Positions 24,358 through 56,994 of a stretch of 64,000 nt of DNA are shown piece after piece (position 1 is the first letter of the stretch; every line of letters begins with the position of its first letter). The position numbers and the translations under genes were made by a program. Under the pieces are notes generated by a model. That model did not search any database, had not been told where the DNA came from, and worked only from the letters and a program-made list of their open reading frames with translations. This stretch comes from Psammoneis japonica (taxonomy: Eukaryota): the NCBI GenBank assembly GCA_008632985.1, contig QPGO01000013.1, positions 310,001 to 374,000 of the forward strand. The letters are read 5' to 3'.

Positions 24358-25112
24358 TGTTTCTTATTTTTATTACAGCTCTGACACTATCTCGCTCCAC
24401 ACTGCACTGCTAATTGGGTGTTGGGGGCATGCGCCATTGTGACTGCAGCATGCAACGGCGCAAGATTGAAGTGCATCTGGCTTTCCAATTTTTGATATCT
24501 TATATTAATGAATGAATACATTTTGAATTGCCACGTCGTGATACGAATTCGGTCCGTCCATGTCACGCGCCCAGAAACTCCCGCCAAATCTTGCGCCGCA
24601 AACTTCCCGCCTCTTCCAATGATGCACATCCTCACTTAGACTTAATACTGTGCATGCGAAGTCTAATGTGTATCTGTTTCAGATATCTACTTACATTTTA
24701 GAGAATCGAAATGTTATGCAAGAGACTTGCAAAAAAAATGTGAAACATGGGATGCATATTATATATTGCCAGCTATCTCCGCCGGATCATGCGTGAAATA
24801 AAACGGCACCGTGGTTCGCTCCTATCATCATCAACCTTCGTTTCCTCTCGCCTCATGAAATATCGAAATGGTAGCTGCGGACGCATATGAACTACACACG
24901 AAAGAACGTTTTGCTCAGCGATAAAGAGTGAAAGTGGCGCATTAACATTTGCGCTCCAAAAGGCTTACATGTATATGTAGGGTGCGGTGCCGTCCACTAT
25001 GGGCATACCGCGTGGATGGCAGGATATGCGATGCAATAGAGGCAGACAACCTTTACAAAATTGGTGGCTGTGTACAAGCAAAATAGTCACAAGGAGAGCG
25101 CTTGCATCTCTC

Positions 25113-26255
25113 TCATGATCGATATGCGACTTGATCGTTCTCTCCTTTCATTTGATCCACGTTTTCTTGAGTCAAATCACTTCGAAACCACTGGAGATTC
25201 GGACAATGACGGACAAGTTCCTTCATCGATTCTTGAGGAATGGCTTGAGCATGCGCTTGCATCCTTCCTCGCACTTGACATTTGACGTTCTTCAGACTTA
25301 CACGCTCGAGACTGGAAAAATTCGAATCATGCAAGACAAACTGGCTCTGGTGCGCTTGGGGCAATTCACTCCCGGGCCACTTCATGCACGTATCATCGAG
25401 ATACAACTCGGTCAAGCTCGTGAGATCTTTTAGACAAAGAGCCGCAAATGGAAAACGTCTCGCGCCGTGCCAAGTGATTCTCTTGAGGTTGACGCAGGAC
25501 TTGAAGTTTCGAAGGGCGCTGGATGTTTGATCAGTAGCGATGATGCTGTTGCTCAAGTTCACCTCCACTAGATTGGGAAGCATGATGGATAGTAACCTTG
25601 GAACACACAGCTGAAGTATTCTTTCGTTCTCGGGAATGGTTATGGGGATCGAAAGGTCTAGGCTCGTCACAGCACGCAACCGTCGGTACGCTGGAGCCAT
25701 TCCTCGCCCGACTCGGGCTGGATCGATACGCCAGTGACCCGAGAGCCTCATCTTGGTTCGTGGGATCTGAAATGCATTGCGCGACTGGAGTAACTTTGAC
25801 AAGAGCTCTCTAATGGTGCAATCTGGAGTGCAGACGATTTCTCCGGTTTTGATTTGGGGAAAGTCGTCCGAACTGTCTTCATGACATTGCTTAGATACGA
25901 TTGAAAAGCTTTCGTGTAGTTCCTCCTCAGTCAGGAACGAAAGGATACAAAGTCGATTGTCTCTCGGAAGATCAGAAAAATTCAGGCTCTTCACACGACA
26001 GAGTACCATGAGAGCCGCATCGGCACCAGCTTGCTCCTGTGTAGCAGAGGAAGACAGACCAGCAGTCTTTTTCGCTTCTGTCGTGCACTGTCGCTTTCCT
26101 CTCTGCTGTGCCTCTTGTTGTTCTGTGGAGGAGGAGTTCACAATAGCAGTAGCTGTACCAACGGTTGAAGCTGTAGTGCCCGCCAGCAGGTCGCTTCCTC
26201 CTTGGTATGGCACGTTTGACGGAGCGCCGCTCCTCTTCTTGTTGTTGTCATTCAT
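25113..26255 (-). CDS. Hypothetical F-box/LRR-like protein
   Basis: FSDLPRDNRLCILSFL...FSIVSKQC is F-box-like; followed by LRR-like segments (VTSLDLS, LPNLVEVNLS, LTELYLDD, LERVSLKN, CPNLQWFRSDL). Confidence 0.65.
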   Translation of the reverse strand: MNDNNKKRSGAPSNVPYQGGSDLLAGTTASTVGTATAIVNSSSTEQQEAQQRGKRQCTTEAKKTAGLSSSATQEQAGADAALMVLCRVKSLNFSDLPRDNRLCILSFLTEEELHESFSIVSKQCHEDSSDDFPQIKTGEIVCTPDCTIRELLSKLLQSRNAFQIPRTKMRLSGHWRIDPARVGRGMAPAYRRLRAVTSLDLSIPITIPENERILQLCVPRLLSIMLPNLVEVNLSNSIIATDQTSSALRNFKSCVNLKRITWHGARRFPFAALCLKDLTSLTELYLDDTCMKWPGSELPQAHQSQFVLHDSNFSSLERVSLKNVKCQVRGRMQAHAQAIPQESMKELVRHCPNLQWFRSDLTQENVDQMKGENDQVAYRS

Positions 26256-27796
26256 AATCCTCGTTCTTGACGATACGTGCTAGCCTAACAAGAGTAGAAG
26301 CAAAGTGACACGAGAACAACAAATACAAGTCTTTGTGTACCTTTCCTTTGTTTGCGGAGGACTAGTCGGTGTGTTGTACAAAAGAGTGAGACTGTCTCGT
26401 GCCTCGACTTGCTGCTATTGGACTACTTTGTTCTGCCCTCCGCTTCCTCAGTGCTAGTGTGGATAGAATGATTGCTGCTCTCCTTTTCCTTCGTGGCTTT
26501 TTTACACTCTTTCATGTGTTGCTTTTCAACTAGTCGAGGAGCATGATCTCGATTCGTGCTTTACTGGGTTTGCGTCTACTGTGAACAGGGATCCTCGAAC
26601 CATGCATGCAACCAAATGCTGATTCGCGGCAAATCGTTGCGAACGCGAAGTGCCGGACGAGTGTGTCAGTTGAAGCGGTGGTTTTCTCAATGCGCAATCG
26701 TAGTTTCACCGAGGTTAATGCCAAGGGCAATAGACAGCGAGTAAAGCCGTTGGATTTTTGCAATAAATCTCGTCTCCTTTCCATTTAACGGCAAGATTGA
26801 CATTATTTCCACCATGGCCAAACCTCTTCTTATTGAAGGCGTTTCTGCATTCATCGTCTCCGAGCAGGTTTGTTTAACACCACCAATGGCTCTATTTAAA
26901 GACATGTCCCTGGGAAATATCTTGCTTAAGTGATATTAAATCCATCTCTGGTGTTCGATTTTTTTACTGTACATTGAGTCGCTTGTTGTGTGCGGCAGGA
27001 CGACCGCAATCCGAGTCGCTGTTGATGATTCCGTGCTGCAACGCAACGCGCTCTCTGCAGGCGGCTCCCACAGACCTCCCATGTTGGGAGCGCCTCTAGA
27101 GCAGCTCTTCCCATGTTGGGAGCATCTCCAGCTGGCAGAAGGGGCTGGAACAGGGGTGGCCACATTGGAGAACATGAGAACCTTCAAGCAAACGAGTTGG
27201 TCTGTGAAGCCACCACTCCCGGGTGTGTTGTGGCCCCGCCAGTGCATGGCGCAACTCTTGTGTGCAAAAAAGAGAGCAACAAAATGATCACACAACAAAA
27301 GACAGAGCCCAGCAGCTGTGCAAAACAGCAAAGACCACATCTTGAATCTGCTGCTCCGCAGGTTTTTTCAGCCACTGTTGACAAGCGCTCTAATCTTTGC
27401 AGAGCTCAAGCTGCTGGTTCCCTGCTTGTCACCTGGCCCACAGCGGCTCTGAAGCAGGAGAGCCAGAGCCCTTCAACACACATGTTGGGGGTGCTCTCAA
27501 GCCTGTCCTGTTGCTTTGCCTCCACCTGCAAGAGCATCTTTGTCCAAAGCTGCTCCGTGTGGGGCACAGCTCTTCCCTGAGGGCGCGGCAACAAAAGAGA
27601 ACAAGGGTGGGGGGGGGGGCAGGCCCACAGCTGTTGCACCAGCTCCAAAAAGAAAAATGGCATGGCCACAGCAGTGTGGCAGAGGAGTTTTGCCATGTGC
27701 TTCTCTCCACAAACTCATGCCACCGACACTTTTGTTGGAAATGAAGAAGCAAAACAATGCCGCCAGCCAGCGACACACACACGCACACACACACAC

Positions 27797-27965
27797 TGAC
27801 AGACATCCGAGACGGGGAGTGCACTCCCTTGTCTCGGACAGACTGGCGTGGACAGCATGGAGAGATCCGATGATCTCTCCTTTGCTCACTTTCTTTCTCA
27901 TCTAGTGCACGATCATCATCTGTCCCAGACATCAGTCAGATCATCCCAATGCCGCTAGTCCACAA
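27797..27965 (+). repeat. 5' LTR (169 bp)
   Basis: Matches 35018-35186 without gaps, 15 substitutions; contains hairpins (ggagagatc-cgat-gatctctcc; tccgaga..gggag-N4-ctccc..tctcgga). Confidence 0.93.
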
Positions 27966-28166
27966 GGTTGTGAGCAGCAGCATGCTGTTTGTCTTCCTCA
28001 GTGCAACTGCGTTGCAATGTTCGCTGTGTGATTTGGCACCGTTTCTCCTTTGAAATCGTCATCTTTGTCACAGCTGTTTTTCTCACTCGATTTTTGTGAT
28101 CATCACCACCACCACAGACCACATGCCAGCATTCCATGCAGGATTTTGATTTTTTTTCGCACAACC

Positions 28167-30192
28167 ATGGCGCCGACCAAGCAAACTTCCATCGATTTGA
28201 CCAAGATCAAGTCAATGCAGGTCAAATTCAAACAGCAAAATTGCTTGCCTGATGCCCATTCTTGCCTGAATGACCTTTGTTCAGACGCCATGCCTGCTCC
28301 TGAAGATCTTCTGGATGGATTTGCTCCTCCAGGCCTCAAGCCCAACGCAGTTGCAATCATCCATCACAAGATCGTTCATGATCTGATCACACCTCAGGCC
28401 ACCTTGACTGAGGATCTTCAACGGATTGGACCGCTCATTGACAAAGCTCCCCTCTTCGTGGCAGCTCCTCAAGACACCCCAATCTGTCTGAACCTTGCCA
28501 ATCTTCAGAAAGCTGTGATCAAAGCCATCTCAGATGCCCAAGACACCACAACCACATGTGTTGGGACTGTCAGTCTCTTCTTTTGCCCTGGTTTTGAGAA
28601 TTGTCTGTGTTGGGATGATGTCTCTGACACTCCACACCCACCGTCAGCCTCTCCTCCAAGCTCTGCATCTCAATCGACCACTGCTTCAGGTCCGACTCCT
28701 GAAGATTTTGCCAAGGCCTCAGCTGCTCATTTGCCTGGAGACCAAAACAGTTTGAGCAAGCTGTGACCAACGCATGGAAGACTTCTGCGGCTTCTGCACC
28801 ATCTCCTTTGCTTTCTGCCAAGACCACTGCTGCTGTGGTTTCCCCTGCGACAACGACCAGTGCTTTGTACACTTTCAACCCGAAGGGACTTCCAAAAGAT
28901 GCATTGGCTTGCTGTCAACGCAAGGAATCTGGGAAAGCAGCACTTGGGAAGTCACTGGCACCTTGCAAATCAGGAAACCTCTACCATGAAGATGGCACTG
29001 AACGTCTCATCCTTGCAGATGGTTCCCTCTTTGTCCATCATGCAGATTGGGATGCCAAGTCTTTCCTCCGTGATCCTTTGACATGTGACGATGTCTCACC
29101 TCAAGGAATCCGAGTGTGGTGTGCTGCAGCAACCCAACAAGCCTCGGCTTGTGGCATCTACATGCATCCTCTCTGGTGTTTCATCAAGGACGGTGGTGAC
29201 TGGGGTTTCACGAGCGGCAGCGACCCGACTGATGACCTGCCACTTCGCATGCATGCACCCCTTGACCGCATGAAGCTTGCACTTCTTCAGTGTGTTCAGA
29301 AGGTTGGAATTTTCCCAGCCGATTCCAAGCATCCTGACATTGTTCGTCAATGCCATGGAGACGGATGTGCTGCCCTCAAGATGACCCTGTTCGACATTCT
29401 TCCGATCTGGACCAAGCGCCCACATGAACTGATCAAGAGCTGCCCGCACCAAAACAATCTCACAATTCTCAGTTGCTGCGCTCTGTCTGGGATTTCCTCC
29501 AACTGCAGGCCATCATTTCCAATGTTGATGCCTCTCTTGATGATCCTGGTGAGCTGGACATCTTTCTCAGCAATGCTCGACATGGAGAGCACCTGCATCG
29601 AAAGACAGTTGCCGCCAGGGAAGACAAGAGTCAGGAACACAAATTCACTCAGAAGAAGATTGTCGAGATGATTGCTGCGATTCTCAAGGAACCAGACAGT
29701 CCTGCTCTTTGTGTCAAGGATCCTTCCAAATGCCCTGCATGACGCCTCCACAACCAGAATCTGGCCAATCCTCCTTTGGCAGCTCCTCTCCAAGCCCTTG
29801 ACTTGACACCTGAGGACGAAGCACCAGATCCACCTCTGATTGCTCTGGAACCTCCAATGGAAACTGCTCCTGCTTCCATTGAAGAACCTGTGGAAACTGT
29901 GGAGTGCTTTGTGGGCGAACTTGCTGCTGTGGAAATTCCACCGGATGATGACACACAAGCACTGCACGGCATTCACAAGGCTTGCATCTGCAGGATCAAG
30001 TCTTCCCCTGCCATTGCCCACTCTCAACCATGTGTTGCATGTGGTGATGACCACTTGTTCCACGAGTGTCCGGTCTTGAACAATGCTGAGCACCTGCGCA
30101 CCCATCTCATCCGCTTCTGCCAGCTCCTTCAATGTGACCGCCGTGCCCGAGACGCACCCAAGGATGGAAAGTCAAAAACGGATTTTTCCTGG
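28167..30192 (+). pseudogene. gag: Copia gag, degenerate and frameshifted
   Basis: Chain of ORFs 28050/28763/29473/29776; zinc knuckle CVACGDDHLFHEC near 30030; ends at DFS(W)G. Confidence 0.7.
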
Positions 30193-33100
30193 GGCCATTG
30201 TTGCATTCGGATGAACAATGCTGCCCGTCACTTCTCAATCCGAAACTGCATGCCAGCGGGGCAACTGCGAAAGAGGGTCCCAAAGACTCGTTGCCTTCCG
30301 CTGAACTGCCTCTTTCACGTGTCTCATTTGCTGACCTCTTGTCACCCTCAACGAAGACTGGAACCCCGGTGCAATGTGCAGCTGCCAATGAGAGTCAACG
30401 CATCACGGCGACGTGTTGCAGCCTTTAAATGTCACAAGGGCGTGACAAAAACAACCTTTTGTCTGCATGCATGCTGCGTTGTGAATTCACAACGGAGTGG
30501 TTCATCGCAACCATCAGGCAGGAGGCCAGGGGTTCGAAACCCTGAGTGGGAGTTGTCTGCAGCAACGTTGATCACTGTCGAACGCGTTAGACTCTGTGCA
30601 GTTCTGTGTGTTCCTTCGCACGTGCCCACACTGTTCCGCCAAAACCGTGCAGTGTCAGCACACGTTAGTAAAGAGCCGCATGGACGCGTGATGCATGGGG
30701 AGGAGTGCAACACACAGCTGCCAACAAGAGCCAATGCACCACGGCGACGTGTTGCAGCCTTTAAATGTCACAAAGGGCGTGACAAAAACAACCTTTTGTC
30801 TGCATGCATGCTGCACCGGATCTCAACACTGTTCCGGATGATGACCCAGACACTGCCAATCAGGGGAGGGCAACGCCTTCTCATGAAACATCCACCAGCG
30901 AGAACGATTTCTCTCTCTCCACTGATCATGATCAAGATTTTGAGTGCATCGATGTGGACGCCAACCAACATCTCTCACCTTTGAGTGCAGTGCACATCTC
31001 TCCGATTTTTTCTCCACCTGCAGCACCCACGACGTTTGACTCCTTGACTGCCCCCGTCATCCCGATCAACCATGCAATGCGTGATTCAACGATCTGTCGT
31101 GCGCAAATTGACACTGGCGCTTGGGTGTCTTGTGCCGGAGACAAACAACTCCTTCATGCTTGCACTCCATTTGGTCTGGATGACCCCTGTCCTTTGAAGA
31201 TGCTCCCTGCTGCTGAAGGCTCTGATGCAATCCCTCATGGTTTTGGTTGTCTGCAAGCACCTGCTGCGAATGCTGATGGTTTCCTTCTTGTTTGCACTTT
31301 CTGCCATCCCAGCCTCCGTTCCACCTTGATTGATGAACGCGACTTTGCACAGGCTTCTGGACTTACACTGAAAGCCATTTGTTCCGAGTCCCTCGAGAAG
31401 ACCTGCGCTGATGGAACGTGTGCCCATGCTGCTTCGACTGATGCTCAAGTGGTGATTGTCCATGGCATCCTCCGACATGGAAAAGTTTTTGCCCAGCCCC
31501 TGGTCCCACCGTCTCCGACCAATGATCCCTCCATGCCTGCGACTTCTGACTTGCTTCCGGTTGATGACATTGACGATGCCTGCCAACGTGCGATTTTTTA
31601 TGTCAACGTTCAGCAAATGCCGTCTGACCCTTGGTTGATGGATGCTGAGTTGTTTCCAACACAATGCAACTCCATTGTGCACTGTTCATCGCCTCCGCCA
31701 AGTTCTGCCCCGGTCCGCTCTCTCAAAGTTGAGACTGAACGTCTCCTTTGGCGCCAACGCCTTGGACATCCCAGCAATCACCATTTGCATCATGCTCACA
31801 AGCACATCAAGGGAGTTCCTGAGTTCCGTCATGCCAATCCAGCTCTTGACATTTGTCCCACGTGCATCCAGGCAAAACAAGTCAAGACTCCTGCTGGACC
31901 AAACTCCACTCGCACGGCAACTCAACCATGTCAAGGTCTCACTGTGGATTTTGCCTTTGCTGGACAAGCCTCCAAGAATGCATGTCGCACCTCTGATTGC
32001 CTTGGCCACAATGGCGAAACATGTTGGATCACCGTTTGCAACCATAAAACACGCGTGCTTCATGGTGTTGCACGAGTCTCGAAGGCTGGTCCTCTCAAGT
32101 GGCTTTGCCGATTCTTGGATCGACACTCGCCAAATTGTCATGACAAATGTGTGTTTGTGGACCAGGGAGGGGAATTGCACAAGAACCCCAAAGTTTGTGA
32201 CCTCTTCAAACGAGAATTCCAGCATGACATTTGCCCATCAGGCGCTGGTGCTTCCAATCAATGTGGCCCTGTGGAACGCTCACATTTAACTGTTGAGAAC
32301 GCGATTCGTGCAATCTCAATTGGCGCCAATCTCCCGATCAGATTCTGGCCCTGTGCTTTTTACCATTGCCTCCGCATCAAGAATGCTGCTCCTGCGAAAG
32401 ATCAAGATGCATCTCCTGTCACCCTTGCTGCTGGAAAGGTCGAAGACTTTGCCACCTTGAAGACTTTTGGATGTCGAGCATGGGCCAAACGCTCCACAAA
32501 ACGCTCCGCCACTTTTCGCTCCAACTCCAAGAAGGGTGCATTCCTTGGACATCTCCCAAACACCCTGAAGAATGTTCTTTGGTGGGATCCGGAGACTGAC
32601 AACGTCAAGACAGCTAAACACGTCCGTTGTGACGAGGGCATGAATGACCTCTCCACAGATCAACTCCCTCTGAATGCCATCCAGTTGCAATGCATGGAAA
32701 ATGGTCAGCCTTTTCCGGCTGAAACACAGGACACGACCGTCCCAATGTTTGCTTCTTCATCAAATCCTTTTGCCAAGACCATCACTTGCACCATGAAGCG
32801 TCCTCCAATGGATCCCAGCTGTGGTTTTGGGTTCTCCATGTGTGCTCTCATGGAACGCACACATGTCTCGGACATCAAGCAACGCAGTCCTGCGGCCTCC
32901 CTGTTCTCTTCTCTCCGTGCCACTCGGAACAAGCTCATGGGTGCCCATGTTGTCTCTGTCAACAAGCACGAAGTCTTTACACCGCAAGATGCTGAAAAAG
33001 CACTCCTGCAGGTCTGCCAAGATGACATCCCTACTTTTGAACTTGCGTTTGCGCCTGAACGACGTCTAGATTCTCGCACCCTTAACAAAGCCTTTGAGGA

Positions 33101-34904
33101 AGCGGAGCCATTTGATCCTGACTCAATGGAAGATGACTCCCATGCACCGGAGCTCACTTTGGAGGATGCACGATCCATTGCAGCAGTCCTGTGTCCTGAT
33201 GATGACTTCTCCAATGATGCTGTTCCGACCGAGGCTTTCTGTGCTCATCTCCATGCCATCAGCTCTCGTGCAATCACCCCGGAGGAAGCTGCCCTTGAAC
33301 GCCTTGCCCGTGCCAAGCTCTGTAAACTTGAAACATGGCCTGAATGGGAAGAAGGAGAGAAGCGCCAATTGGACCAATTTTGTGCACTTGGCATGTGTGG
33401 CCCTCCACAACCTCGTCCCGCATTCTTCATGTGTGGAACGCTTGGTTGAAAAGATGTTTTTCGCTCTCAGTGCTGCCACATCTTATCGAATCTATGGTGG
33501 TGACGCACGCGATGCATGTGCTCATTCTCCTGGCCCTTCACAACCGGTGTTTGTCGCCATTGATGATGCCTGTGCTGCTTGGCATGAAAATTGCTTTGGC
33601 AAGAAGGCACCTCGCCACTGCATCCTTCCGCTCCGGCATGCTCTCCAAGGTCATCCTGAAGCTGGTGTTCTGTGGGAAAAGCACATCAGTTCGATTCTCA
33701 CTGGTGCAAAACTTCTTTTTCGCAACACTGCTCATGACAAGTGCATCTGCTCTGGTGAACATGACGGTGTCAAGGTCCTGTTGCTCCGTCAAGTTGATGA
33801 TTTTGCACTTGCTTGTCCTTCCGAGAAGGTTGCGAAGGAAATCTATGATCACATTGGGAAAGCTCTTCAGATGGAGAACGAGGACACTCCCCCCTTCAAA
33901 CATCTCAGCCTCGTTGCTGAATTCAATGGCATTGATGTTGTTCAGGGTCAGAATGATGATTCGATCATGATCAATGTTGCCAGCTGCCTCGACCGTGTCT
34001 TCAAGACCCATGGATGGGACACTCCCGCTGCGAATGAAACCGACACCGATTTCAAGGCTGCCCCTGTGCCAGTCGACTGCATTCCCGAGTTGTGCACTGC
34101 TGAAGGCCCCGAGGAGGGTGCTCCTGAATGTGATGCTCTCTCTGCCTCTCATGGTTTTTCCTGTTGCTCTCTCTTGGGTGAATTGGTCTTTGCACACTGT
34201 GCTGTCGCTTGGACATTGGACACCCTGTTGTCACCTTGTCCAAGTTCTCCAAGGCTCCCGCTGATGTTCACTGTGATTCCCTCAAGCGCATGACTGAGCA
34301 CCTGCGATGTGCCAAACACTGGGGCTTGACACACAAGAAGACTGAGCGTGATCCGGGCCTGCCTCCCCGTGCTTTTGAGTGGCTCGAAGATGATCCTTCT
34401 CTTCCTGAGTTCCCCCGCGTTGATGATCTGTTCCAACTGCTTGGCTTTGTTGATGCGGCACATGCCAATGAACTGTGGTGTCGCCGCTCTGCCACTGGGT
34501 GTGCGCATGTCCTTGCTGGTGCTGTGATTGATTGTCGTTGCCATGCACAGACCATTGCAGCTGCCAGTTCCGCCGAGGCTGAATTCCTCGCGGCTGTCAC
34601 TGCTGCCAAGCAGACGTTGTGCCTTCGCATGGTCCTTGAAGAGCTGGGCTTTGCCCAACGTGACCCCACTTGCTTGCATGTTGACAACTCCTCCGCCATC
34701 CGGATGATCAACAACAAGGTGCCTGCGGAGTGATCGCGCCACATTGACATTCAACATTTTGCGATCCAAGACTGGCGCGATGCAGAAAAAATTGTCACAA
34801 GACATGTTCCGGGTGTTGTTGACCCTGCCGACGTCCTCACCAAGGCTGTGGGTTGGATGCTTCATTCCCACCATGCCCGTCGTCTCATGGGACACTGCTG
34901 TTGA
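30180..34904 (+). pseudogene. pol: Copia pol (protease, integrase, RT, RNase H), mutated
   Basis: PR IDTGA (about 31110); LLW(R)QRLGHP...CPTC; integrase VDF / DQGGEL / GPVERSH; RT ALQGHPEAG and LRQVDDF; RNase H GFVDAAHAN, EAEFLAAV, RHIDIQHFAIQDW, HARRLMGH(C); internal TGA at 34731. Confidence 0.92.
30370..30815 (+). mobile_element. Nested TRIM-like non-autonomous LTR element (446 bp)
   Basis: About 110-bp terminal direct repeats (30370-30478, 30706-30815), outer ends TG...CA, PPT ggggaggag before the 3' repeat, CCGG duplication on both sides; removing it restores the pol frame. Confidence 0.8.
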
Positions 34905-35017
34905 TTGTTGTTCTGTTTTGTGTGTCTTTTTGGTTTGCTGTTCTGGTCCTCATTTTTTTCTCTCGGATTGTCTCCTTTCTTTCTTGATGAGCTTTTGCAT
35001 TGCTCATCAGGGGAGGG

Positions 35018-35186
35018 TGACAGACATCCGAGATGGGGAGCACACTCCCTTGTCTCGGACAGACTAGCATGGACAGCATGGAGAGATCCGATGATCTCTC
35101 CTTTGCTCACTTTCTTTCTCATCTAGCACACGATTGTCATCTGTCCTAGACATCAGTTAGATCATCCCGATGCCGCTAGTCCGTGA
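35018..35186 (+). repeat. 3' LTR (169 bp)
   Basis: Preceded by the PPT, followed by the TSD CACAC, and matches the 5' LTR. Confidence 0.93.
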
Positions 35187-38100: not shown

Positions 38101-41100
38101 TGGAGCTCACATGCTAGCATTGGCGGGAGGCTTGTGCTGCTAGATGCCACAGAGCTCTCTCACCAACCCCCCCTCTGTGCACACATGTGAGAGGTTGCCC
38201 CCCTTGGCATCAGCAAGGGGGTTCCCTTGATGCAACACATCAAAAGCAGAATTTTTGTGGTTGTGTGAGACCAGCTCTCCCCCATGGTGAGAAGAAACTC
38301 TCTTGTGCAACTGCTGACACCACACCCCTCTGTGACCCAGCTCTCTCCTCCAGTCAAGCATGTGCAGCTGCTCATTTTCAAATGTGGTGTTTGCGTCAAT
38401 TCATTTTCTTCAGCAAATGATCAACTCTCAACCATCTCCAATTTGTGCTGCATTTTTCCATGGCCAGCAGAAAATTGCTGGCTGCTGGCCATGTCATTGC
38501 ACACAAGAATGGAGCCATCCAGCACACCCTCATCTCAAATGTTGTCTGGTGTCATCCAGACAGGCCAACCATGATCATTTGCTCCCATTGTGGCTTTGTT
38601 CTTCTTGTTGGAATCCCTGCTGCTGTGTGCTTCTTCAATTGTTTTCATTCATGCTGTTGCTTGGGTTTCTTGCATCAATGAGCTTGCTCTTGTTTTGTTC
38701 CTCTTGCCTTCTTTTCACTTGGGTGAGTGTCATCATCACCACAGAGGCTGCAGGCAGATGGCAGCATGCTTGTTTTGGTGCATGCTTCCTCACCTGCACC
38801 CAGCCTGCAACACATGCATTGACTTCTGGTGTGATGCCAGCTCAAATGAATGAGTTGCAATGTGAAAGAGCTGGTGAGTCAAATGCAAATGAAGGAAGTG
38901 AAGTTAAGTGCAGGTTAGAAAAGTCATCTTTGACACACACCTGAATGTCAGAAATTTCCACTGTCACAAAATGACTGCTGAGCACAGACACAATCAACAA
39001 ACATCAAATGGAACAGCTTGCCACACAGCCCAAGTCTGCTTTTCCACATTGTGTTGTTCTCATTTGCACGAACCCGTTTGCCTGAGAACTGAGAAGCACC
39101 ATCCACAAATTTGCATCAACAAATGTTTTGACACACCAGCAATGGAGACCAGATTGTTTGATGACAAAAATGTGACCGCTGGATTTGTGTGTGTGTCATT
39201 TTTCATTGCCTCTGTTGTCAAGCACAACCTCAACTCCTTTTTGACTGCCAGCCAATGAACTTTGATTGCTTGTTGCTCATGAGCAATCAAAGTTGATTTT
39301 AAAAAGGGCACAAATGCACCTTGTGTGAGAGGTTGCACTGGCTCTTGAATTTTTGGCATGATGGAGCACAACGTCAAGGTGGTCACCCCCCACCAGAGCC
39401 AACACCTCATGTTCCTTTGTCATTTTTTGCCTCAAAGACGATGTGCTCCATGTTTTCAAAATCATTGTCATCAAGTTCTTCCCTGATGAGGACTGTGGTG
39501 GTTGCTCTCTTGCTGAACTTTGTTTTGGTCCTGCGTTGTTGCTTGCATCAGAGCTTGTCAGCACAAAAAAGTGGTTTCTTGTGGCTTTGGGAGTGTTTGC
39601 CTTGTCAGGCATCAGGGCCGCATCATTGCAAGGGCTCGTGCAGGGAGCCACAAAGTGCGTTGATCCATGAGATGTTTTTGTTGCAGTGTGGCTGCCAGGC
39701 ATGTGCTCTTCTGTCAGTGGGCGCAAATGCATGCTTGTCATTGTCTTGGTGTCTGCCAAGCATTGTCTGGTCTGCAAAAGACCTCAATTGAAGCAAGCAG
39801 CATCACACCTCTCCTTTCTCTCCCCCCCCCCCCCCCATTGAAAAATCTGGTTGCTGCAATGAAGGATTTGGTGCATCATGGTTCAAGGAAAGGAAGCAAG
39901 AGAAGGCCAACTTGTCACAGGAGGCAGAGAAGAAGCACAGCAGAGAGGAGAAGAGGAAGGAGAGAGAGGGCAGATGGCCACTCTGATGGGAGAGAGGTCC
40001 TGCCCTTGTAGCCAGTGGCAGCTGGCAATGGTGCGGAAGCAATTGCAGCCATGGCAACAAACCAAACTGGTGTGCAAATGCAACAATGCAAGGAGATGAA
40101 ATGCAGAAAGAAGTTGCACAGGTGCAGAGGATGGGTTGCAGGTGGCAAGAGATGTGATGAAAAAGGCATGAGGAAAAGCAAATGACAAGAAGGGTTGAGA
40201 ACAAAACCACGGGCAAGAATGTTCGTGCTTCAAAGTGGGGTGAAAGCTGGAGCCCACCGAAACTTGTAAACTCAATTGGTTCTTTGCCAATGTTCAAAGA
40301 AAGACTTGGCTCACAAGTTCACAATTGTCTGGGATTGGAGTCAAGAAATGCCCAGATTGTGACAGGTGGTCAGACCCAGATCATTGGTGTCCCAGATGCA
40401 CAACAAGGCACACTTTCAAATGGCAACAGACCCACAGTCAAACTGACCCACCAACCAACCGGCCAACACGAACAAAAAGTCACAATCACCAACCACTGAG
40501 TGTCAATGAAAACTCCAACTGCACTGCCAAACAAAGCAGAGTTCTTCCAACCCTGAAGCCCGTGCCAGGCCCAATGCAGACAATGGCTGCCACATGTGCC
40601 TGCTGCTTTGCCTCTGTCTCCAAACTCATTTGGTTTTGCCCATTTGGAGATTCCCCAAAATGGCAAGGGCAAGGGGAATTGCCTCACCCTTTTGGGAAAT
40701 GCCCAGGAAATGAGAGCAATTTAGCGGGAAGGAACAACTGAAAGGGTTCAGGGGAAGGAACCAAAAATGAGTGCAGTGCGGCAACCCCACTTGATTTGGC
40801 TTGGGCAGGTGTGCTTTTTCCTTGTTTTCATCCAGCCGTGGCTGGGCGACGACCATGATGGATGCATCAACAAATTGACACAAAGTGGCCCCTTGTGGCA
40901 GAGCAAGGGAGAACAAACTTTGCCATTAAATCATGCACATTGACATTGCTCACATGCAGCTCCATTTGTGCCCCAGCCCAGAGCCCAGCTCCCACAAATT
41001 GTCATTGTTTGTGTGCTGTGGAATTTGACAGAGGGAGGGAAGGGCAAATTTTTAGGCAGTGAGCAAAACATTTGTGAGGGCAGGCATTTGCAGTGCAGTG

Positions 41101-44100
41101 CTGCACATGGCTGAATTCTTCACACTCCACAAAGACATGTGACTCCATTTGCAGGCACTGGCATGAGTTTTTGCATTCAAATCATTGAAATGGTGAATGA
41201 CCGTTTCACAGTTCTGGTGGACCCCACGAAAACCCACAGCACAAGCACTGTACAATCCTCAATTGAGGAAAATCCCGGTGGACCAGACATTTTAAAGTGC
41301 TTCTTCATGTGTGATGTGAGAACACTCCACGGCAGTCTCTGCTCTTTCTTTTTGTGCAATTTTCAAGACCGTCATTGTTTTTAATTTAAGCTTTTTCCGT
41401 TCAGATTTCAAAAAATCCGGATTGATTGTTCTGGCCATTTTTTCAGGCAACGCAAATCGCCCGCATCCCGCATTTGCTTTCGGTTGCCTCAAGCCTCAAG
41501 TGAAACAAGACGTGGTTGCGACCATGTGCAAAGCCGATGAAGAGCCGAAATCAACCAGTGCGGTTTTCAAACCACCTCTTTCACCAGAGATGTCACAACG
41601 AGAACTAAAGATCATCAAGTTGAATGACCGAGTTGACAAGATTGCTCAAGGGGCCACAAAAGAGGCCAAGAAAAACGGAACAGAGCTCAAAACGCAGTTT
41701 GCACACACCCAGAGAAAGAAAACCTTTGTCAATGCAGGATTGCCGATCTGCATGCGACATCATGCCTGGTTGGTGTGCACATGCACCTTCCTGGCTGCTG
41801 GAATGATTGCCTGCGGTGTGACCCGAGCAAACCCCCAGAACAATCAACCCAATTCAGTTAATTGCAGTTGGTTGCAATTGCAAATCAATTGCAGCATGTT
41901 CACCTGTTCCTCAACGCATTGGTTTGATTTGTGTTGTGCTTGATTTCTGCACATTGCATGCAAAAAATTGCATCGCTTCTCAGCACAAAAACGATGCAGG
42001 TTTCTACACGGTCATGAAGCAATGGCGGCATCTTGCTCTGCTTCTCCCAACACAATGCGATCTGCACCCATTTGTTTGTTGTTGTTGCCGTTGAGTGCAG
42101 CACGTCATGTTGCATGAAGGAAAACAAGGATCTCTGGGATGTCAGTGATGTGGTTGAAGCCATCAAAAAGAGGCTGGAGAAAAGCAAGGAGAGCTGAGCA
42201 TCCAAGAAGATTGAAGAGGAGGCCCTCATCATTGCAGCCATGGTGGCTATGGTGGCATGTGATGATGACGAATCTCAGCAGCAATTGCTTCATCACAATT
42301 GTGCAATTGATTGCAATTTAATTGCAGCCTCTCCAGCCCCAGCTGCAATGAATGGAACCTCCAGTGTTGTTGGCGGGAAATTAAAAAATGAAATTTTCTG
42401 GGGGTTTGGACCCAAGTCCACCCTCTGATTGGCAATCTTGTCCATTGTTTTCATGTGTTTTGAGTGCAACATGCACTCAGGAATCCTTCACGTCATGTTT
42501 GATCTCCCCAAAACATCGATGCACCAGTTCCAGGACAAGTCTGCTGCCTTAATTCCAATGGCATCATTTCATCGCCAATGATCTGGTGCACAAGGACTTT
42601 GTCGACACCTGTGGTGACCTCAATGTTGTTGCAGCCATCTTTTAGCATCAACCTGATGCTCCCAGACTTCAGCAAAAGCAGTGTTGCCAAGATTGTGTTT
42701 GGCACAAAGATCCTGATGGGACACTTTGGTCAACACACTCATTGCAGTGGTCATGCCATTGGTGCAAGTCTGTCATCCCTGGCAAGATTTTTGCAAAAGT
42801 GCGGCCTGATGATGTCAACCAAGGATTGCTGGATGCACCATCAAGAGCCCCATGACTCCAATTTCTGCAACATCAGTTGCTGCAACCCAGTCATTCATTT
42901 TCTAAGAAAGACCATGCTCAATGATTTGGCATGGATTGTGCTCTTTCTTGTGTGGAGCATCTTCATGATCAAAGTGCCAGTCATGTTCATGGAAATGGTC
43001 TCTTGACATTTTCTTTCTAAAAGCAACAGGCATCTTTTCCCATTGTCTGCCCACCCTAAAGCATTGTTCTGTTCTGTCCATGTGCAAGATGAAACAGAAT
43101 TGTTGCACAGTTGACATTAAAAACACACAGTCGTCATAAATCCATGTGATGACTGAGGTGTCACAGTGCAAGTGCCGGCATGACAACAACTGTGAACATG
43201 CCTCACGGGTGTGGCAGCCACAATCTGCAGCAGACAATGAACTCTGTGCAGAAGTTACAATGTGTGGCATGTTCATGCAAAAGGACCAGTGGGCATTTGC
43301 GATGGCCAGCAGTTTGATTCTCTAAAAGCCAAAACACTGAGTGTCATTCTTGAGCAGGCAACCTGTGTCATTTTGATTGCATGGACTGTCTTGCACTGGC
43401 CAGTGGATCTCTTTTTGTGGAAAAATCCAATGCCAGATCAGAAAGCTTTGCTTCATGAGCCAAGTTTTTTGTTGTGTGATGGTGATTCACTGTGCAGCTT
43501 TTGCCAGTGGCATGTGTCAATGTCTGGCTGGTGACATGCAACCAACTGTGGCTGCTGGTGCATTCCTCTCTTTGGCATTCTTTCCTTTGCAGCCAGCACA
43601 CCCACATGTGACTGTGTGTGCTTGGGTGGACAAGGAAGAGCTGCCATCCACAGGGTGTGCTGCAAGACTTGGGCATGTGGCCAATGTGCAAATGCCACAA
43701 GAAAAACTCTGAAAATCCAGTGGCATTGCCATCACAAACCCAGACAAAATTTTGCCCCTGCCAGCTCTCTCAGAGATGCTGGGCTTTTGTTGGTCATGCT
43801 TTTGTTGCAATCATCATCAAGTGCAAACTCTCACACATGGCACTCACAAAGCCCCTCCTCAGCAAGCTGCACATTGTGCCCCTTGTTCAGCTTCAGAAGA
43901 AAACAATGGCACCTGGCAGGGCCCTTGTTGTCTTTCTTCAAGGAATGCAACACCCTGCTGGGAAACCATGCAGAGCTGAGAAGTTTGATCTTGCCAGGTT
44001 CTCAAGGTGGTGAATGTGGGAGCTCATGACATGCTCTCCCAGCTCTCTTGAACACCCCTCTCATGAGATTGTCTCTTTTTGGATCAAAGGGACAGGGGAC

Positions 44101-47100
44101 CCAGGTTTTTCTTTAATGCACACATGGCAGAAAGCAGTTTTTTGGCATGTTGCATGAGATGATGCCACATGATTGGCAAGAACAGCTTCTGTTGTGCACA
44201 AAATCATGCCAAAATCTTCTGCTGGTTGCAAGGAGAGGCAGAATTTCAAAGCAACGTTTTCCAAAATTGGTCTCAGCTGGTGCATTGTGTCTTGTGACTC
44301 TCGATGATGGTGCTCATTTTGCTGTGGTGATGACATTGACAACTGCTGCAGCTTCATTGAGCAAAGAAGTTGTCTTTGCCAAGAACAAAAAAACCTGCAC
44401 AATTTCTGTGGTTTTCCCCAACCAAAGCAGCAGCAGGATGCAAACAAGAAACAATCAAAGCCACACTGCTTGGGGGCAAATGATCATGATGCAGACCTGC
44501 AAGCAAAAGAGGCAGGCAAGTGCTCCTGGCCAGCCAGCAGCGGGCAATGATCAGACCAAAAAAAGCAGCAGCAGCATCAAAAGAAATTGGATTTGGCTAA
44601 AAAACTGTCACAAGGTGCCAAGCTTCTAACTCCCACTGCACCCTTTGCTGAACAACACACACCAAACAAGTGCATGGTTTCTCACCAAAGAGCTGCTTTC
44701 ATGAACTCAAGATCATGATGGACAGTTGCCTTTTGATGCCATCATGTCCACCATCATTGACCTGAGAGTGGGGTGCACCTGTGCACAAGTTTTAATGGCA
44801 GTCTCATCAAATGGTTTTGAAGTGTCTGCACAGCTCCACATCTTTTGTTTGAGCAACACATGCCATCATCCAAATGGCACCTTTGTGAGAATGAATTTTG
44901 TCATTTGCTGAAAATGTGAGCTGCAAAGACTTTGTCTGTCAGCAAACAACTTGCAAACATGATGAAAGCTCCAAGGAAAGGATTTTTGGGCTCTGAGTCT
45001 GCTGGGTGCCAATGCACAGATTTGGAGAACATGCAACCAAATCGACTTCACACCCACTGCTTCTTGCATGGGAACTGGCACAAAGCTTTTCCAGCGAGCT
45101 GCTTGAATGAGAAAGCTGGGATAAAAACAAACCTGCATTTTCCAGTTTGTCTGCTCAAGCAGGTTCAAATCAGTGCAAATTGTGAAACTCATGACAGGCA
45201 AAAACCAGAGCCTGAGTGTGCTTCTTGCTGCCACTTGTTGCTGTTCAACTTGGGTGAACTGTGGCAACTTGATGTGTGGCGATTGACAAAGAAGCTCGCA
45301 CATTTCTCAGAGCTGGCAAAAAAGATGCAGCATCAGAGGAGCAGGAAGTGCCAGGTGTCACCTGTCAAAAGGCTGAAGATTTTAAATCTTCTCTTGCCAA
45401 ACACACTTTACAATCATGATCAAGGTCAAGGTCTGTGCAAGTTTGCACCAGCACAGACAGCCACACCTGTGCCTGTTCTTCCACCAGAAACTCTGACTCC
45501 GGCTCCAGGAAATTGCTGTCTCAGAGGAAAGGTGGAGAAGAGACACTTGCTTTCAGCAGGTTCTCTGAGATGGTCTGTCTTCAGTCTCTTAAAAAAACAC
45601 TTGCTGCCTGGACAAGCTTGCTTGCCTTAAACTGACAACTCATCCGCTGGGTGATTCAAAGAACAAAGCCAAAAACAAGAGTGGTGGCATGGATGTGGCT
45701 GATTGCAGAGCTCAAGAAGCTCAACAAAATTGCTCTCAATGCTCCAGTTGCATTGATGCTGCTGCTTTGCAAGGCTTCTCTGGAAGAGTGGTGTCAGAAG
45801 TGAGCAAGAACAATGTCAAGACACCATGGAAGAGCATCTTGGGTGCTGTGCAAGTGGCTTTTTCCATCCAGAAGAAGAACATTGTCTGTGCAAGTGGGTT
45901 GGAGACTGCTGCAACACTCTGAAGGTGCAAAACTCCCTGCCCAAAACTGTGAAAAGTGTCCAGACAACTGCCAGCTGTGGCCCACAGATGTCACAGCACA
46001 CACACCACACATGCCACATCATCTGTTGTTGCAACAACATCATGTGCCAGCACCCAGCTCTGATGACACACTTTGTGAGAACACTTTTTCTTTGTTGTCT
46101 CCTGTGAGAGATGGAGTTTTGCTGGTGCCATGACTCTTCATTTCTGTTGACTGCATCATGCTTGTCTGTCATTGATCAGCATCCTTTCAACAAACACTTC
46201 AAGAAGTTCACACCACTCCAGACAAACACAGGCTCTGCTGTTGGTGGCACATGGTCACAGATGACTCAGCACATGTTTTTTTTTTAACAAGCACACACGC
46301 TTCATCAAGTTTCACATTTAAAAATGAGGTGTTGGGGTTGGCACCAACTCCCTGTGTTTTCATCTTTTGATGGCAGGCAAGTGTGCATGTGTGATTTGTT
46401 CCTCCCTTGTTGATCAACTTCTTTGTTCTGTGTTTTTAATTTGTCCATTCCTTTCTCAGGCCACACCACTTCCAAAGATGGCAAAGCAGGTGTTGAGCTC
46501 AGTGCAAACACAACAAAAGAGAGCAACTGTGGGAAAATGTTGCCAAACACCCAACAAGAGAGGGGCTGCTGGCAATGCAATTGACACACATGACAGCCAA
46601 ACAAGAGGTCTCACTTGCTTTCAAGAAAACTGCAGAACTTTCAAAGGAGGCCAAGACACAAGTGTGTGCAAGACCACCAATGCCTGACAACTGACTGTGC
46701 CCAAGTGTTTGTGGAGCCAGCATGTGCATTTGGGCAACACACTTTGTTGTGCTACCTCATTGTGCAGCATGCCAGCAATGCTGACTGCCTTTAGAACACA
46801 GAGCAAGGCAGTCATTCACAGCTTCATCATTGTCAGCCCCATTTGCTTCAGTTGATTTGTGATGTCCACAACCACAGCCATGGTGACTGCAGGAGATCAC
46901 AAGACACAATGGATGCAATTCTCAAAGAACCACAGCAGCTGAGGACAGAATGTGAATCCAGTCAACTCATGAGCAACAGGCATGTTGATCAGCAGCAAAT
47001 GGGTGTTTTTCTGAGTGGAGTGATTGCATCTCTTGACATTCACACCAATGGCAGCATCTCTTGCTTGCTGGATGCATGGGAGCACTGCATGGAAAAGTGC

Positions 47101-49291
47101 ATGTCAGCATGCACATTTGTCACATGTCTGGGGTGGTCTTGCCAGTGCTCAAGATGCCAACTGTCACAGTGGTGGTGCATTTTGAGGAAGTGTTGCTGGT
47201 TTGCTTCAAAGCTGCTTGCACACATCAAGCCATTCTGGGCATTTTGAAATGCCCCAGATGTTGCACACTCAAGATCCATCAGGATTTGCATTTTGGGTTC
47301 ATGGCTCCATTCTGGATGAGCACAAAGAAGGAGCACCACCACAAAGAGATACACATTTCCCAAGAGACACTTGGTTGCCTCAACACCAAAGTGTGCCACA
47401 GTGAGGGAGAGAAGTGGAGAGGACCCATGCTCCAGTGGGCAGCAGTGCTGCACGCAGGGCACTCTTGGAATTGTTGAATTTTCTTTTTCTGCTCTGCATG
47501 TCTTGCTTGCTCACAGATCCCTTGTGATGGCTGCTGCTGCTTCAACCAGTGCTGGCAGTCACATCAATTTTGAAGACATTTGTGCACTTGCATGTGCAGA
47601 TGGTGTGGCTCCTCTTGAGGACCACATTTAGTTTGACCTGCTTGCTGATGGCAAAGGCTCCATCATCTGCTGGTTCCAAAAATGGGGCTTCCATCTGCAC
47701 ACATGTGCAAGACAACTTTTGGCATCTCAGCCTCAAGAGAGCACGGGAGTGTGCAAGAAGCTGCTTCCTCAGATGACTTCAAGAATAATTTCGGTTGTTT
47801 GTCATGCCAAGGTTTTTTTCACTGCATGCACCCCAGCAACTAGAAAATCACCGAGCAGCTTCATGGACAGCTGCAGCTCAATTTAGAGAGAAATGTGTTG
47901 CTCCTTTGGCAGCAGTGTGAAAAAGCTAACAAAAACAAGGAGGAGGGCAAGTCAGATGGAAGAAGCAACCAGAGGTTGTGCCCAGCAATGAGTGCTCCTG
48001 AAGCACAAGGAGCCAAAGAGTGGCAACAGCATTCATGTGGAGAACAGCTGCAGTCAAGCCCAAAAAAGCATGGGCTGCACACAACTGCAGCTGTCCCAGA
48101 GATGAAGTGAGAGGAAGGACATGGCTGCACAGATTTCACATGAGAAAGGTGTGAGACATGCCAAGGCTCAAGACCTCGACACCAAAGAAAATCAAAAAGC
48201 TGCTGACAAGGTGATGCACCAGCCCATTGATTCACTCACAAGCCTGTGAATTTAGAAAGATGGCAAGCAAAAGCCAATGTGAACAATGTGGACAATGACA
48301 AGACATGGGGTCATGGATCCCAATGAAAAACAAAGATCAGAAGATCCCAGCTGGCTTGCATCTGACAAGTTCTGGGAAGGATCGAAAGCAAAGAACAGCT
48401 TTCACGACATTCTGGAAGCAGTTTTCCCCTGCTTGCTTCTGGCTCAATGGGATGAAAACCAAAACCAAAATTGAGTCTGGTGAAAATGACACCTTGCAGC
48501 ATTTAAAGATTGCTGGCTGGGTTGCAGAGAAAAATGTCAACGACAATCTTTTGGAGTGCAAAACATGGAAGACTTGAATGAAAAACAAATCCTCTCCACT
48601 TGTTGGAAAGTTGATGCCCAGACACACCTTGAAGAGAAGCATGGGGCAAATGAAAAGCAGAGTGAGTTACACAGCAAACTGCTGCAATCACTTGGCATGC
48701 CCGTGCAGAGTCACCCATGGCTTTTGTTGGGGAGAAAAGCAAGGAAAGAGCAACAGCAGAGATGTCATGGAGAGAGCGATGATGAGGGCTCATGAAGTTG
48801 AAGAACGCAAATGAGGAGAATTAGACTGTTGCTCTGGGCAGCTTGCCAGAAAGGAGAAAGACTGCAGAGTTGAGCATGTCAGAAAATGGGGCCTCAGTTT
48901 TGCCACCAAATGGGAGTGTTGTTTGCTGGCAGCACCTGGGTGTGATCTTTGCATGGTGAAGTGCGGCAACAGAGAGAAAAACAAAAAGCGGTTTCATTTT
49001 CTTGGCACACCCAAATGGCCAGATGTGGTGTGCATGCGAGCTGCTGTAGAATGGATTTGTTTGCTAGCCAGTCCTCTCAAAAATTGACACTGCAAAATTT
49101 TACAAGAGAACGCATTGTTTGAGGGCGTTGCAGTTGCGCGGTGGCGCGCTTTTTTTGCGCGCGTTCTCCCACCCACACGGAACAACGCACGCACTTGCAA
49201 GAAAACTGAAATTTCGAACTAACTTCGCACTTCACTCATTTTTGTTGTTGACCTGCGGTTGACGGTGGTATTGTGTTGATTGCTTCTGACC

Positions 49292-56785: not shown

Positions 56786-56994
56786 GTTTTATCTTCAATT
56801 TGTTTATTATTTTTATGTAAAGGGTTATGCTGATTGGGTCATTATGACTCAATGGCACCTTATACATGTCTTCGTAGCGTTGGATATGGAATGTCTTTTC
56901 GAAATTTTTTTTTGCGGTCATTGTTTTCGTCATTATAGCGATCGATCTGATTGAGCGAGAAAGGAGAAAATGTAACAGGAAAAGAAGGAGCAAC

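Follow-up and report, generated by a model that had tools for sequence, protein, structure and literature searches.

Why is a stretch of about 22 kb in a pennate diatom genome nearly devoid of the dinucleotide TA, while the DNA on both sides of it has an ordinary TA content? The question is raised by a 64-kb stretch of Psammoneis japonica DNA (contig QPGO01000013.1, positions 310,001 to 374,000), called the window here, in which a retrotransposon of the Ty1/copia type lies nested within older DNA, and both are TA-poor. The analysis covered the window, the contigs of one public run, X1, and relatives in the protein database and in metagenome contigs. The answer that we regard as likely is that this genome has transposon-derived blocks in which TpA was turned into TpG or CpA after insertion, and that the process was targeted. 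The changes are A:T to G:C transitions that are restricted to TpA, affect either strand about equally, and end at sharp borders.

Dinucleotide counts revealed that TA was scarce in all 2-kb bins between 28001 and 48000, with a ratio of observed to expected occurrences (O/E) of 0.02-0.10, in comparison to 0.58 in the flanking gene-bearing DNA. With bins of 500 nt, the values were 0.00-0.21 for 27001-48501 and 0.56-0.70 for the flanks. The region 26980-49046 (22,067 nt) contains 92 TA, while 852 were predicted at the flank rate. In the same 2-kb bins TG and CA were in excess, with O/E values of 1.35-2.09 for TG and CA (values for the flanks: CG 0.98, TG 1.12, CA 1.14). At the left edge TA occurs every 5-50 nt until 26970 and afterwards just at 27097, 27391, 27903 and so on, and at the right edge the TA density is restored from about 49047-49220. 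The borders are therefore abrupt, within about 130 nt, and the TA O/E is 0.05-0.07 inside and 0.58 outside. A preliminary description of this locus, made from the sequence alone, had reported the near absence of TpA and the excess of TG and CA over about 22 kb between ordinary flanks, and the counts bear this out. Two further TA-poor blocks were detected beyond the interval that it had covered, and about 43% of the window consists of TA-poor blocks:

26975 to 49100, unstranded: main TA-poor, TG/CA-rich domain of about 22 kb, defined by dinucleotide counts, with sharp edges on both sides

55544 to 56789, unstranded: small TA-free island between ordinary genes, with 0 TA in 1,246 nt and O/E values of 0.48 for CG, 1.75 for TG and 1.66 for CA

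59602 to 64000, unstranded: third TA- and CG-poor block, reaching the end of the window, with O/E values of 0.05 for TA and 0.06 for CG

For the island, no protein domain and no similarity to the other TA-poor blocks was found; it could have originated from a small and recent insertion that the same process affected. A repeat comparison within the window showed that the TA-poor blocks have no mutual similarity, except for the long terminal repeats (LTRs) of the copia element and one repeat of 100 nt (30379-30477 and 30715-30814), the copies of which differ by swaps of TG and CA.

CG was depleted within the same borders as TA: its O/E was 0.58 in the copia element and 0.13 in the older DNA around it, and the last block had a value of 0.06. 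Of all dinucleotides, a share of 0.238 were pyrimidine-purine (YR) steps in the TA-poor DNA, the flanks having an almost equal share (0.236), and the decrease of TA plus CG (0.074) was matched by the increase of TG plus CA (0.077). A constant YR total and an agreement of loss and gain are expected from transitions within YR steps. The preliminary description had argued that decay of 5-methylcytosine (5mC) cannot remove TA, which is correct, but it had missed that CG is depleted in the very same blocks. Because CG was lost within the same borders, the TA-poor DNA would formerly have been CpG-methylated, and the CpG loss is predicted to represent a separate, slower decay of the 5mC type. In related copies of the copia element, described below, CG loss was uncoupled from TA loss. 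The depletion of TA also has a consequence for gene prediction. The stop codons TAA and TAG are present at 2.0 and 1.2 per kb in 26980-49046, in comparison to 8.5 and 8.2 per kb in the flanks, so that long open reading frames (ORFs) arise by chance in all six frames, and gene callers will over-predict in TA-poor DNA.

The central part of the domain is the copia element, which has the following features together with the older DNA around it:

26980 to 27796, unstranded: left remnant of the older TA-poor DNA, the target of the copia insertion, with 2 TA (O/E 0.05) and a CG O/E of 0.41

27792 to 27796, forward strand: left copy of the target-site duplication CACAC, plausible and not unique in this CA-rich stretch

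27797 to 35186, forward strand: Ty1/copia-type LTR retrotransposon of about 7.4 kb, recognized by its LTRs, Pfam domains and relatives, with O/E values of 0.07 for TA and 0.58 for CG

27797 to 27965, forward strand: 5' LTR of 169 nt, matching 35018-35186 with 15 letters differing

30804 to 33449, forward strand: open frame of 881 aa, protease/integrase part of pol, heavily missense-mutated, with gag_pre-integrs and SH3_retrovirus domains

33094 to 34293, forward strand: remnant of the reverse transcriptase in another frame, RVT_2 with an E value of 0.0022 (below the cutoff), with the motif DACAHSP at 33511

35018 to 35186, forward strand: 3' LTR of 169 nt, retaining 5 TA, all in the context [CT]TAG

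35187 to 35191, forward strand: right copy of the target-site duplication CACAC, likewise plausible and not unique

35192 to 49046, unstranded: older TA- and CG-depleted DNA with O/E values of 0.06 for TA and 0.13 for CG, mostly at single-copy depth in X1

The paired LTRs, the 5-bp duplication, and the gag-pre-integrase, integrase-SH3 and RVT_2 domains in this order are features of the Ty1/copia type, with the RVT_2 match being weak (E 0.0022). TA is nearly erased from the element, about 40% of its CG are lost, and pol is broken over several frames.

Is this composition the result of mutation, or is it a property of the element itself? Exactly as described before, the 881-aa frame has only 2 Tyr (0.23%), and it has 4.8% Cys. 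Its 44 relatives are mostly copia polyproteins of about 1,400 aa, the named ones being from Cylindrotheca, Nitzschia and Pseudo-nitzschia, and all 44 have 1.2-4.7% Tyr and 1.1-3.3% Cys. Thus, the copia family is not inherently Tyr-poor; equally Tyr-poor intact members of the family would have spoken against the reading of the preliminary description, as it had stated itself. One relative (P0043) is itself comparatively poor in Tyr (1.2%) and rich in Cys (3.3%). An alignment of the frame to 39 of the 44 relatives yielded 379 conserved columns, a column being kept if it had 25 or more residues and an agreement of 70% or higher. Of these conserved columns, 98 are changed in the 881-aa frame. All 14 consensus-Tyr columns have lost the Tyr, which is replaced by Cys (TGY codons) in seven, His (CAY codons) in four, Phe in two and Trp in one case. 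Thr is changed to Ala in six columns, and in all six the preceding codon ends in T; Ile is changed to Val in four columns, three of which are preceded by T. In addition, Arg is changed to Cys (CGC to TGC) in three columns.

The preliminary description had read Cys and His as former Tyr, and Ala as former Thr at codon junctions spanning TA, and both readings agree with the conserved columns. The motifs on which it had relied are all present, i.e., FWPCAF, GELH, DKCVF and FLGHLP within the frame at 30804-33449, DACAHSP at 33511 and KCICSG at 33739, as well as TGCA at 34494 and MGHC at 34887 in another frame. Its statement that the coding capacity was destroyed also holds, as is evident from the broken pol and the changed conserved columns. 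These replacements are what a loss of TA would produce: Tyr codons (TAY) would become Cys or His codons, codon junctions at which T is followed by A would yield Thr to Ala and Ile to Val, and the disappearance of TAA and TAG would keep the frames open while the protein would be dead. Signals that contain TA, such as TATA boxes and AATAAA, are presumably destroyed as well.

An intrinsic avoidance of TA by the elements, e.g., as an escape from nucleases or as a result of codon usage, has hardly any probability left. TpA is indeed under-represented even in the flanks (O/E 0.58), but the Tyr content of all 44 relatives contradicts this explanation, and the loss of 14 of 14 conserved Tyr columns in a pol gene that is broken over several frames also speaks against it, as does the divergence of the two LTRs, which is confined to YR steps.

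The LTRs allow the timing of the changes to be addressed. The 15 differing letters between 27797-27965 and 35018-35186 represent 11 events, and all of them are in YR steps: three are TA versus TG/CA, four are TG versus CA, and four are CG versus TG/CA. Outside YR steps there is not a single mismatch across the 169 nt. Where one LTR has TG and the other has CA, a TA or CG precursor must have been mutated independently in each LTR. The two LTRs were copies of one template at insertion and now differ, and therefore the changes occurred after integration, in chromosomal DNA and on either strand. About 93% of the TA are gone, and the LTRs carry no ordinary substitutions. From this, the mutation rate of TA sites can be estimated to exceed the background by two orders of magnitude or more. 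It is also estimated to be several times that of CG sites (O/E in the copia element 0.07 for TA and 0.58 for CG). The TpA process would thus far outpace background mutation and would also be faster than CpG decay.

The same comparison bears on the idea that retrotransposon RNA was edited from A to I by an ADAR-like enzyme and that the changes were fixed by reverse transcription. In favor of it, ADAR prefers a 5' U and the hosts of the changes are retroelements, according to a recent preprint (10.64898/2026.01.13.699255). However, it is contradicted by the LTRs, which were identical at insertion and are now 11 YR events apart. Moreover, both strands are affected, as seen in the 7 Cys versus 4 His replacements and in the balanced outcomes in related copies (TG 258, CA 225), and DNA that does not belong to a retroelement, including a desaturase pseudogene, is affected to the same degree. 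RNA editing is therefore very improbable, although a little less so than intrinsic avoidance.

Related copies of the element were studied as well. The pol frame was aligned with 26 relatives, and a scan of metagenome contigs with this alignment yielded 80 loci with TA O/E values from 0.15 to 0.78. Many of the 80 loci belong to one family, the members of which are 90-96% alike. Pairs were picked for their contrast in TA, 20 of the 1,374 that were alignable over at least 800 nt, and fewer in later comparisons. In the pair L023 and L046, 98 TA sites have become TG or CA in the TA-poor copy, 6 show the reverse, and 43 TA are shared. The CG versus TG/CA differences were symmetric in this pair (31 and 43), and 107 other substitutions were found in 3,352 nt. 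Four pairs of TA-rich copies were symmetric.

As picking pairs by contrast introduces some asymmetry, polarity was examined separately at the 153 TA sites of L021. Seven TA-rich copies retain TA in 578 of 676 cells, while seven TA-poor copies have TG in 259, CA in 245 and TA in 179 of 815 cells. At 74 of these sites, some TA-poor copies have TG and others have CA. This pattern shows that TA is ancestral and that every copy was mutated independently. Mutation was thus independent in separate copies of the family as well as in the two LTRs of one element. Partial depletion of TA (O/E 0.15-0.31) was found in L016, L063, L048, L025/L026, L029, L066 and L046, and TA-normal copies of the family coexist with them; the process seems to be widespread in environmental diatom-like populations. 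LTR pairs were not found in the 16 metagenome loci in which they were sought.

The per-strand rate of A to G changes was 0.348 for TpA, in comparison to 0.079 for ApA, 0.112 for CpA and 0.065 for GpA, and it was 0.060 for TpA in the controls. The motif is thus TA, not WA (W being A or T). The excess of A to G changes in a TA context, which the preliminary description had proposed to look for in the substitution spectrum, is therefore present. It had also named mutagenesis of the Pol eta type (WA to WG) as a candidate mechanism. This is disfavored and was rejected, as the rate for ApA is not elevated but is similar to that for GpA, and the AA O/E is not lowered. On the coding strand of six pairs, the outcomes TG (258) and CA (225) were balanced. 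Clustering coordinated by strand was not detected in the six pairs tested for it; TG and CA were randomly interspersed, with probabilities of 0.08-0.995 for as few runs.

The letters next to TA had an influence on its fate. In the window, the density of surviving TA relative to the flanks was highest for YTAR contexts (TTAA 0.51, CTAA 0.29, CTAG 0.19) and lowest for ATAT (0), ATAC (0.006) and GTAC (0.028). A model of independent attack on each strand predicted 0.31 for CTAA (observed: 0.29) and 0.12 for GTAA (observed: 0.11). Arithmetic on the window counts gave survival values in this model of about 0.71 for T-A-A, 0.44 for T-A-G, 0.17 for T-A-C and 0.05-0.1 for T-A-T. In the environmental family, the event rates were 0.42 for TAT, 0.44 for TAC, 0.31 for TAA and 0.21 for TAG. 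T-A-pyrimidine is thus preferred about twofold over T-A-purine. The preference itself is seen in the window and in the environmental family alike, and as a result of it YTAR sites such as CTAG last longest.

Could the missing TA be a sequencing artefact? Modified bases on both strands of the palindromic TA and CG sites might have been miscalled, and the consensus might have picked TG or CA at random. Such strand-conflicting miscalls at symmetric sites would yield TG or CA in place of TA as well as CG and would conserve the YR total, just as observed. This was checked with the public run X1, which has a fraction of 0.73 of the sampled words from 25001-35000, and the contigs of which were compared with 24001-44000. 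The word depth was about 60 in single-copy parts. One contig spans the normal flank and the left edge (24001-27759), i.e., TA-rich and TA-poor DNA in one piece, and has three differences to the window, all within the part belonging to 26980-27796. Another contig has no difference over 32750-33314, and the contigs that match the older TA-poor DNA have an identity of 98-99% and the same TA-poor sequence. The reads of X1 are presumably accurate, given the exact 31-mers at a depth of about 60, which noisy long reads would not be expected to yield. The library type of X1 is not on record, which leaves some room for the artefact. The long-read miscall that the preliminary description had proposed to check is nevertheless not supported by X1, which carries the same TA-poor sequence at this depth. 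Furthermore, metagenome contigs from other samples, several of which have names given by short-read assemblers, show conversions that are fixed differently in each copy; this evidence is independent of the platform with which the window was sequenced and counts against an artefact. Taken together, an artefact is very unlikely, albeit slightly less so than RNA editing.

X1 also revealed polymorphism. In single-copy TA-poor DNA, 61 of 5,020 letters differ between the window and X1 (five pieces within 35433-44000), whereas the normal DNA next to it (24001-26979) has no difference in 2,979 letters. There are at least five adjacent double differences of TG versus CA, three in single-copy DNA and two in the copia element, and several differences of CG versus TG/CA and of TA versus TG/CA were also seen. 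The X1 version may be an allele, another strain or a paralogue. This pattern parallels the chlorarachniophyte Bigelowiella natans, for which the preprint reports a 27-fold higher density of single nucleotide polymorphisms in a hypermutable region (10.64898/2026.01.13.699255). Two further observations on depth concern the copia element. The segment 30004-31337 has a summed contig depth of about 30,000-35,000 in X1, while it is 500-1,600 in the rest of the element and about 60 in single-copy DNA; the segment, in which the repeat of 100 nt is located, is of very high copy number and is possibly a satellite derived from the copia element. The contig that matches 32750-33314 exactly has a depth of 34.5, about half of the single-copy value of 61.8, a weak hint that the copia insertion is present on one haplotype only.

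The next question is how the target is recognized. The older TA-poor DNA is informative in this respect. No Pfam transposon family was found among 51 ORFs of at least 100 aa scanned from 35192-49046, and when TA-poor ORFs were compared with Pfam (91 of at least 100 aa and 59 of at least 40 aa) a single family, Lipid_desat, was above the cutoff:

42503 to 43003, forward strand: pseudogene fragment of a lipid desaturase of the cellular type (FAD4/Lipid_desat, PF10520, E 3.5e-10)

In an exhaustive search the best relative of this fragment had an E value of 5.6e-25 and an identity of 48%. The fragment is without the conserved QWHHxIPDD box and has changes of the types Tyr to His and Arg to Cys. 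It shows that sequences other than transposons are affected too; it may have arisen by duplication, or a transposon may have captured it.

Recognition might be homology-dependent as in fungal repeat-induced point mutation (RIP), with duplicates being recognized by pairing, perhaps at a sexual stage, and not by way of chromatin marks or small RNA. The copia family is of high copy number in X1 (summed depth 500-35,000 versus about 60), the mutated desaturase fragment could be a duplicate, and in L066 and L046 the TA-poor part starts no more than about 100-170 nt from the start of the transposon homology, all of which would be in accordance with this explanation. On the other hand, the older TA-poor DNA has single-copy depth in X1 over most of its length, at a likeness of at least 85%. 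TA-normal and TA-poor copies of one family that are 90-96% alike coexist, and the CG loss, with its identical borders, suggests a domain defined by chromatin or methylation. In B. natans, too, the main target is single-copy according to the preprint (10.64898/2026.01.13.699255). Homology-dependent targeting is thus unlikely, though it deserves clearly more weight than the artefact. Of the claim that a process directed at repeats converts TpA to TpG and CpA, the directional process was confirmed, while the direction at repeats was not, since the older TA-poor DNA is mostly at single-copy depth. The process is presumably enzymatic and directed at silenced DNA.

What could the chemistry be? Target A34 of tRNA adenosine deaminases follows U33, and bacterial TadA reads U-A-C. 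As the tentative favorite, a nucleic acid deaminase, TadA/ADAT-like or other, would convert adenine in DNA to hypoxanthine; we put the chances of this a little short of even. Such contexts of tRNA deaminases (U33-A34) and of TadA (U-A-C) would account for the preference for T-A-Y. Alternatively, the process could be real but act on thymine, either by modification of T at TpA (oxidation of the TET/JBP type) or by error-prone patch repair, leading to T to C. TA is palindromic, and A to G and T to C therefore look the same in the sequence; the lack of strand-coordinated runs would also fit a mark on double-stranded DNA. Oxidised thymines mispair with G, and hydroxymethyluracil of dinoflagellates favors TpA. 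However, a literature search on hydroxymethyluracil in diatoms gave nothing relevant, WA targeting of the Pol eta type was not seen (ApA 0.079 versus TpA 0.348), and adenine deaminases that read U-A are known, while the routes from thymine to cytosine are indirect. The thymine route is hence considered improbable, to about the same extent as homology-dependent targeting, and adenine deamination is preferred.

A gene for such an enzyme was also considered within the window. A match to the LmjF36.5940-like deaminase family (CDD/CDA, PF14421) at 61335-61667 on the reverse strand, in the third TA-poor block, was rejected, with a score of 23.9 bits versus a cutoff of 27.1, although a real gene at this place would be remarkable. 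It comprises just 27 aa around a PCxxC motif, and the neighboring frames gave no support. A zinc-motif family other than PF14421 also matched translations of TA-poor DNA, at 8.7e-4, and the PF14421 match is probably a composition effect of the Cys- and His-rich translations of TA-poor DNA. The family itself is reported as a host gene family in stramenopiles, for which CDD/CDA deaminases fused to Tudor are also noted (PMC3239186). Two observations concern the normal DNA of the window. For a PROPPIN/WD40 gene in the flank, the best named relatives are from Epithemia, Seminavis and Amphiprora (48-52% identity), which indicates a diatom, probably a raphid pennate. The segment 52766-53050, which contains TA as usual, is a short tandem duplication; its units measure about 93 nt and have a likeness of 95-96%.

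Several points weigh against a targeted TpA process of this kind or limit the evidence for it. The flanks can only approximate the composition that the elements originally had. X1, for which no library type is recorded, may share the sample of the assembly, and its independence was judged from k-mer depth only. The selection of the metagenome pairs partly builds in the asymmetry of TA counts, though not the specificity for TG/CA and not the polarity. A processive deaminase acting on single strands might have left strand-coordinated clusters, and none were seen. The best-protecting purine also differs: TTAA is the top survivor in the window, but just 3 of 15 are retained in the environmental family.

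A precedent has been described very recently. When B. natans was studied by mutation accumulation, 231 mutations were recorded in two viral regions integrated in its genome; 230 of these were A to G or T to C changes, all at TpA, and the hypermutation rates were about 1,000 times the background (Mettrop et al., bioRxiv 2026, 10.64898/2026.01.13.699255). According to this preprint, TpA-poor coding sequences of B. natans are enriched for reverse transcriptase. The authors propose deamination of adenine in DNA and note an ADAT2 candidate; DNA activity has been reported for some ADAT2 enzymes, as cited there (10.64898/2026.01.13.699255). Diatoms are not mentioned in the preprint (10.64898/2026.01.13.699255), and a literature search for a report of TpA hypermutation in diatoms found none. 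The preliminary description had known of no description of such a process in diatoms; this stands, but there is the precedent in B. natans (10.64898/2026.01.13.699255). By analogy, the TpA process in the diatom is probably a genome defence like the TpA hypermutation of B. natans.

It is conceivable, although rather doubtful, that diatoms and chlorarachniophytes share a chromosomal defence that edits adenine at T-A(-pyrimidine) in silenced or foreign DNA, is based on a TadA/ADAT2-like enzyme and is widespread in the SAR group (Stramenopila, Alveolata and Rhizaria). In such a pathway, an anticodon-loop adenosine deaminase would have been recruited to chromatin and would have retained its inherited U-A(-C/U) specificity, and repeated action on either strand in growing cells would continue until TpA was erased. 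It would amount to a base editor for DNA adenine that occurs in nature.

The findings have several implications. RIP has long been viewed as a fungal peculiarity. With a system of opposite polarity in two distant algal lineages, mutational genome defence would become a broader eukaryotic theme. For base editing, the process would be of direct interest too, as it would imply a natural DNA adenine editor with a defined motif. On the practical side, TA-poor blocks create long false ORFs, homology searches miss the transposons in them, local heterozygosity is inflated, and the dating of LTRs is biased. Some diatoms can be transformed and crossed, so that the enzyme and the targeting signal would be accessible to experiment.

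A comparison with known systems places the diatom process nearest to that of B. natans. In both, A:T to G:C changes occur only at TpA, give TpG or CpA, and affect either strand. In each case the changes are restricted to foreign or transposon-type DNA beside a normal genome, polymorphism is raised and there is a link to reverse transcriptase, and the action is uneven, on some lines in B. natans and on some copies here. The differences are that the host is a diatom (Stramenopila) and not a rhizarian chlorarachniophyte, that LTR retrotransposons and decayed DNA are hit nearly to saturation (TA O/E about 0.05 versus 0.45 in the viral region), and that a coincident loss of CpG and a preference for a 3' pyrimidine were seen here. 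Furthermore, the rate was measured directly in B. natans, while that of the diatom was deduced from LTRs and copies.

RIP of Neurospora and other fungi is also a hypermutation that kills mobile elements, with a dinucleotide context, sharp borders and a strong signature. However, RIP changes CpA to TpA, makes the DNA AT-rich and creates many stop codons, whereas here TpA is changed to TpG or CpA, the GC content rises slightly, and TAA and TAG vanish. RIP is further characterized by homology dependence, premeiotic timing and a cytosine methyltransferase of the RID/DIM-2 type. The 5mC decay of CpG yields the same products, TG and CA, in the same blocks (CG O/E 0.06-0.58), and it is represented by the four CG versus TG/CA events in the LTRs; but it leaves TA untouched, and the CG loss is slower and uncoupled from the TA loss. 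APOBEC3 (C to U in cDNA) and ADAR (A to I in RNA) likewise inactivate retroelements by clustered transitions with a neighbor preference. They act before integration and on one strand, whereas the changes in the diatom occurred after integration, are symmetric and extend beyond retroelements. The tRNA deaminases TadA and ADAT2-ADAT3 have a U-A(-C) context that resembles the T-A-pyrimidine preference, and their action on chromosomal double-stranded DNA is hypothetical. Taken together, the diatom case joins a very recently described kind of system and extends it to a new major lineage, to retrotransposons as targets and to near saturation, and it adds new information on the sequence context, the timing and the independence from CpG decay.

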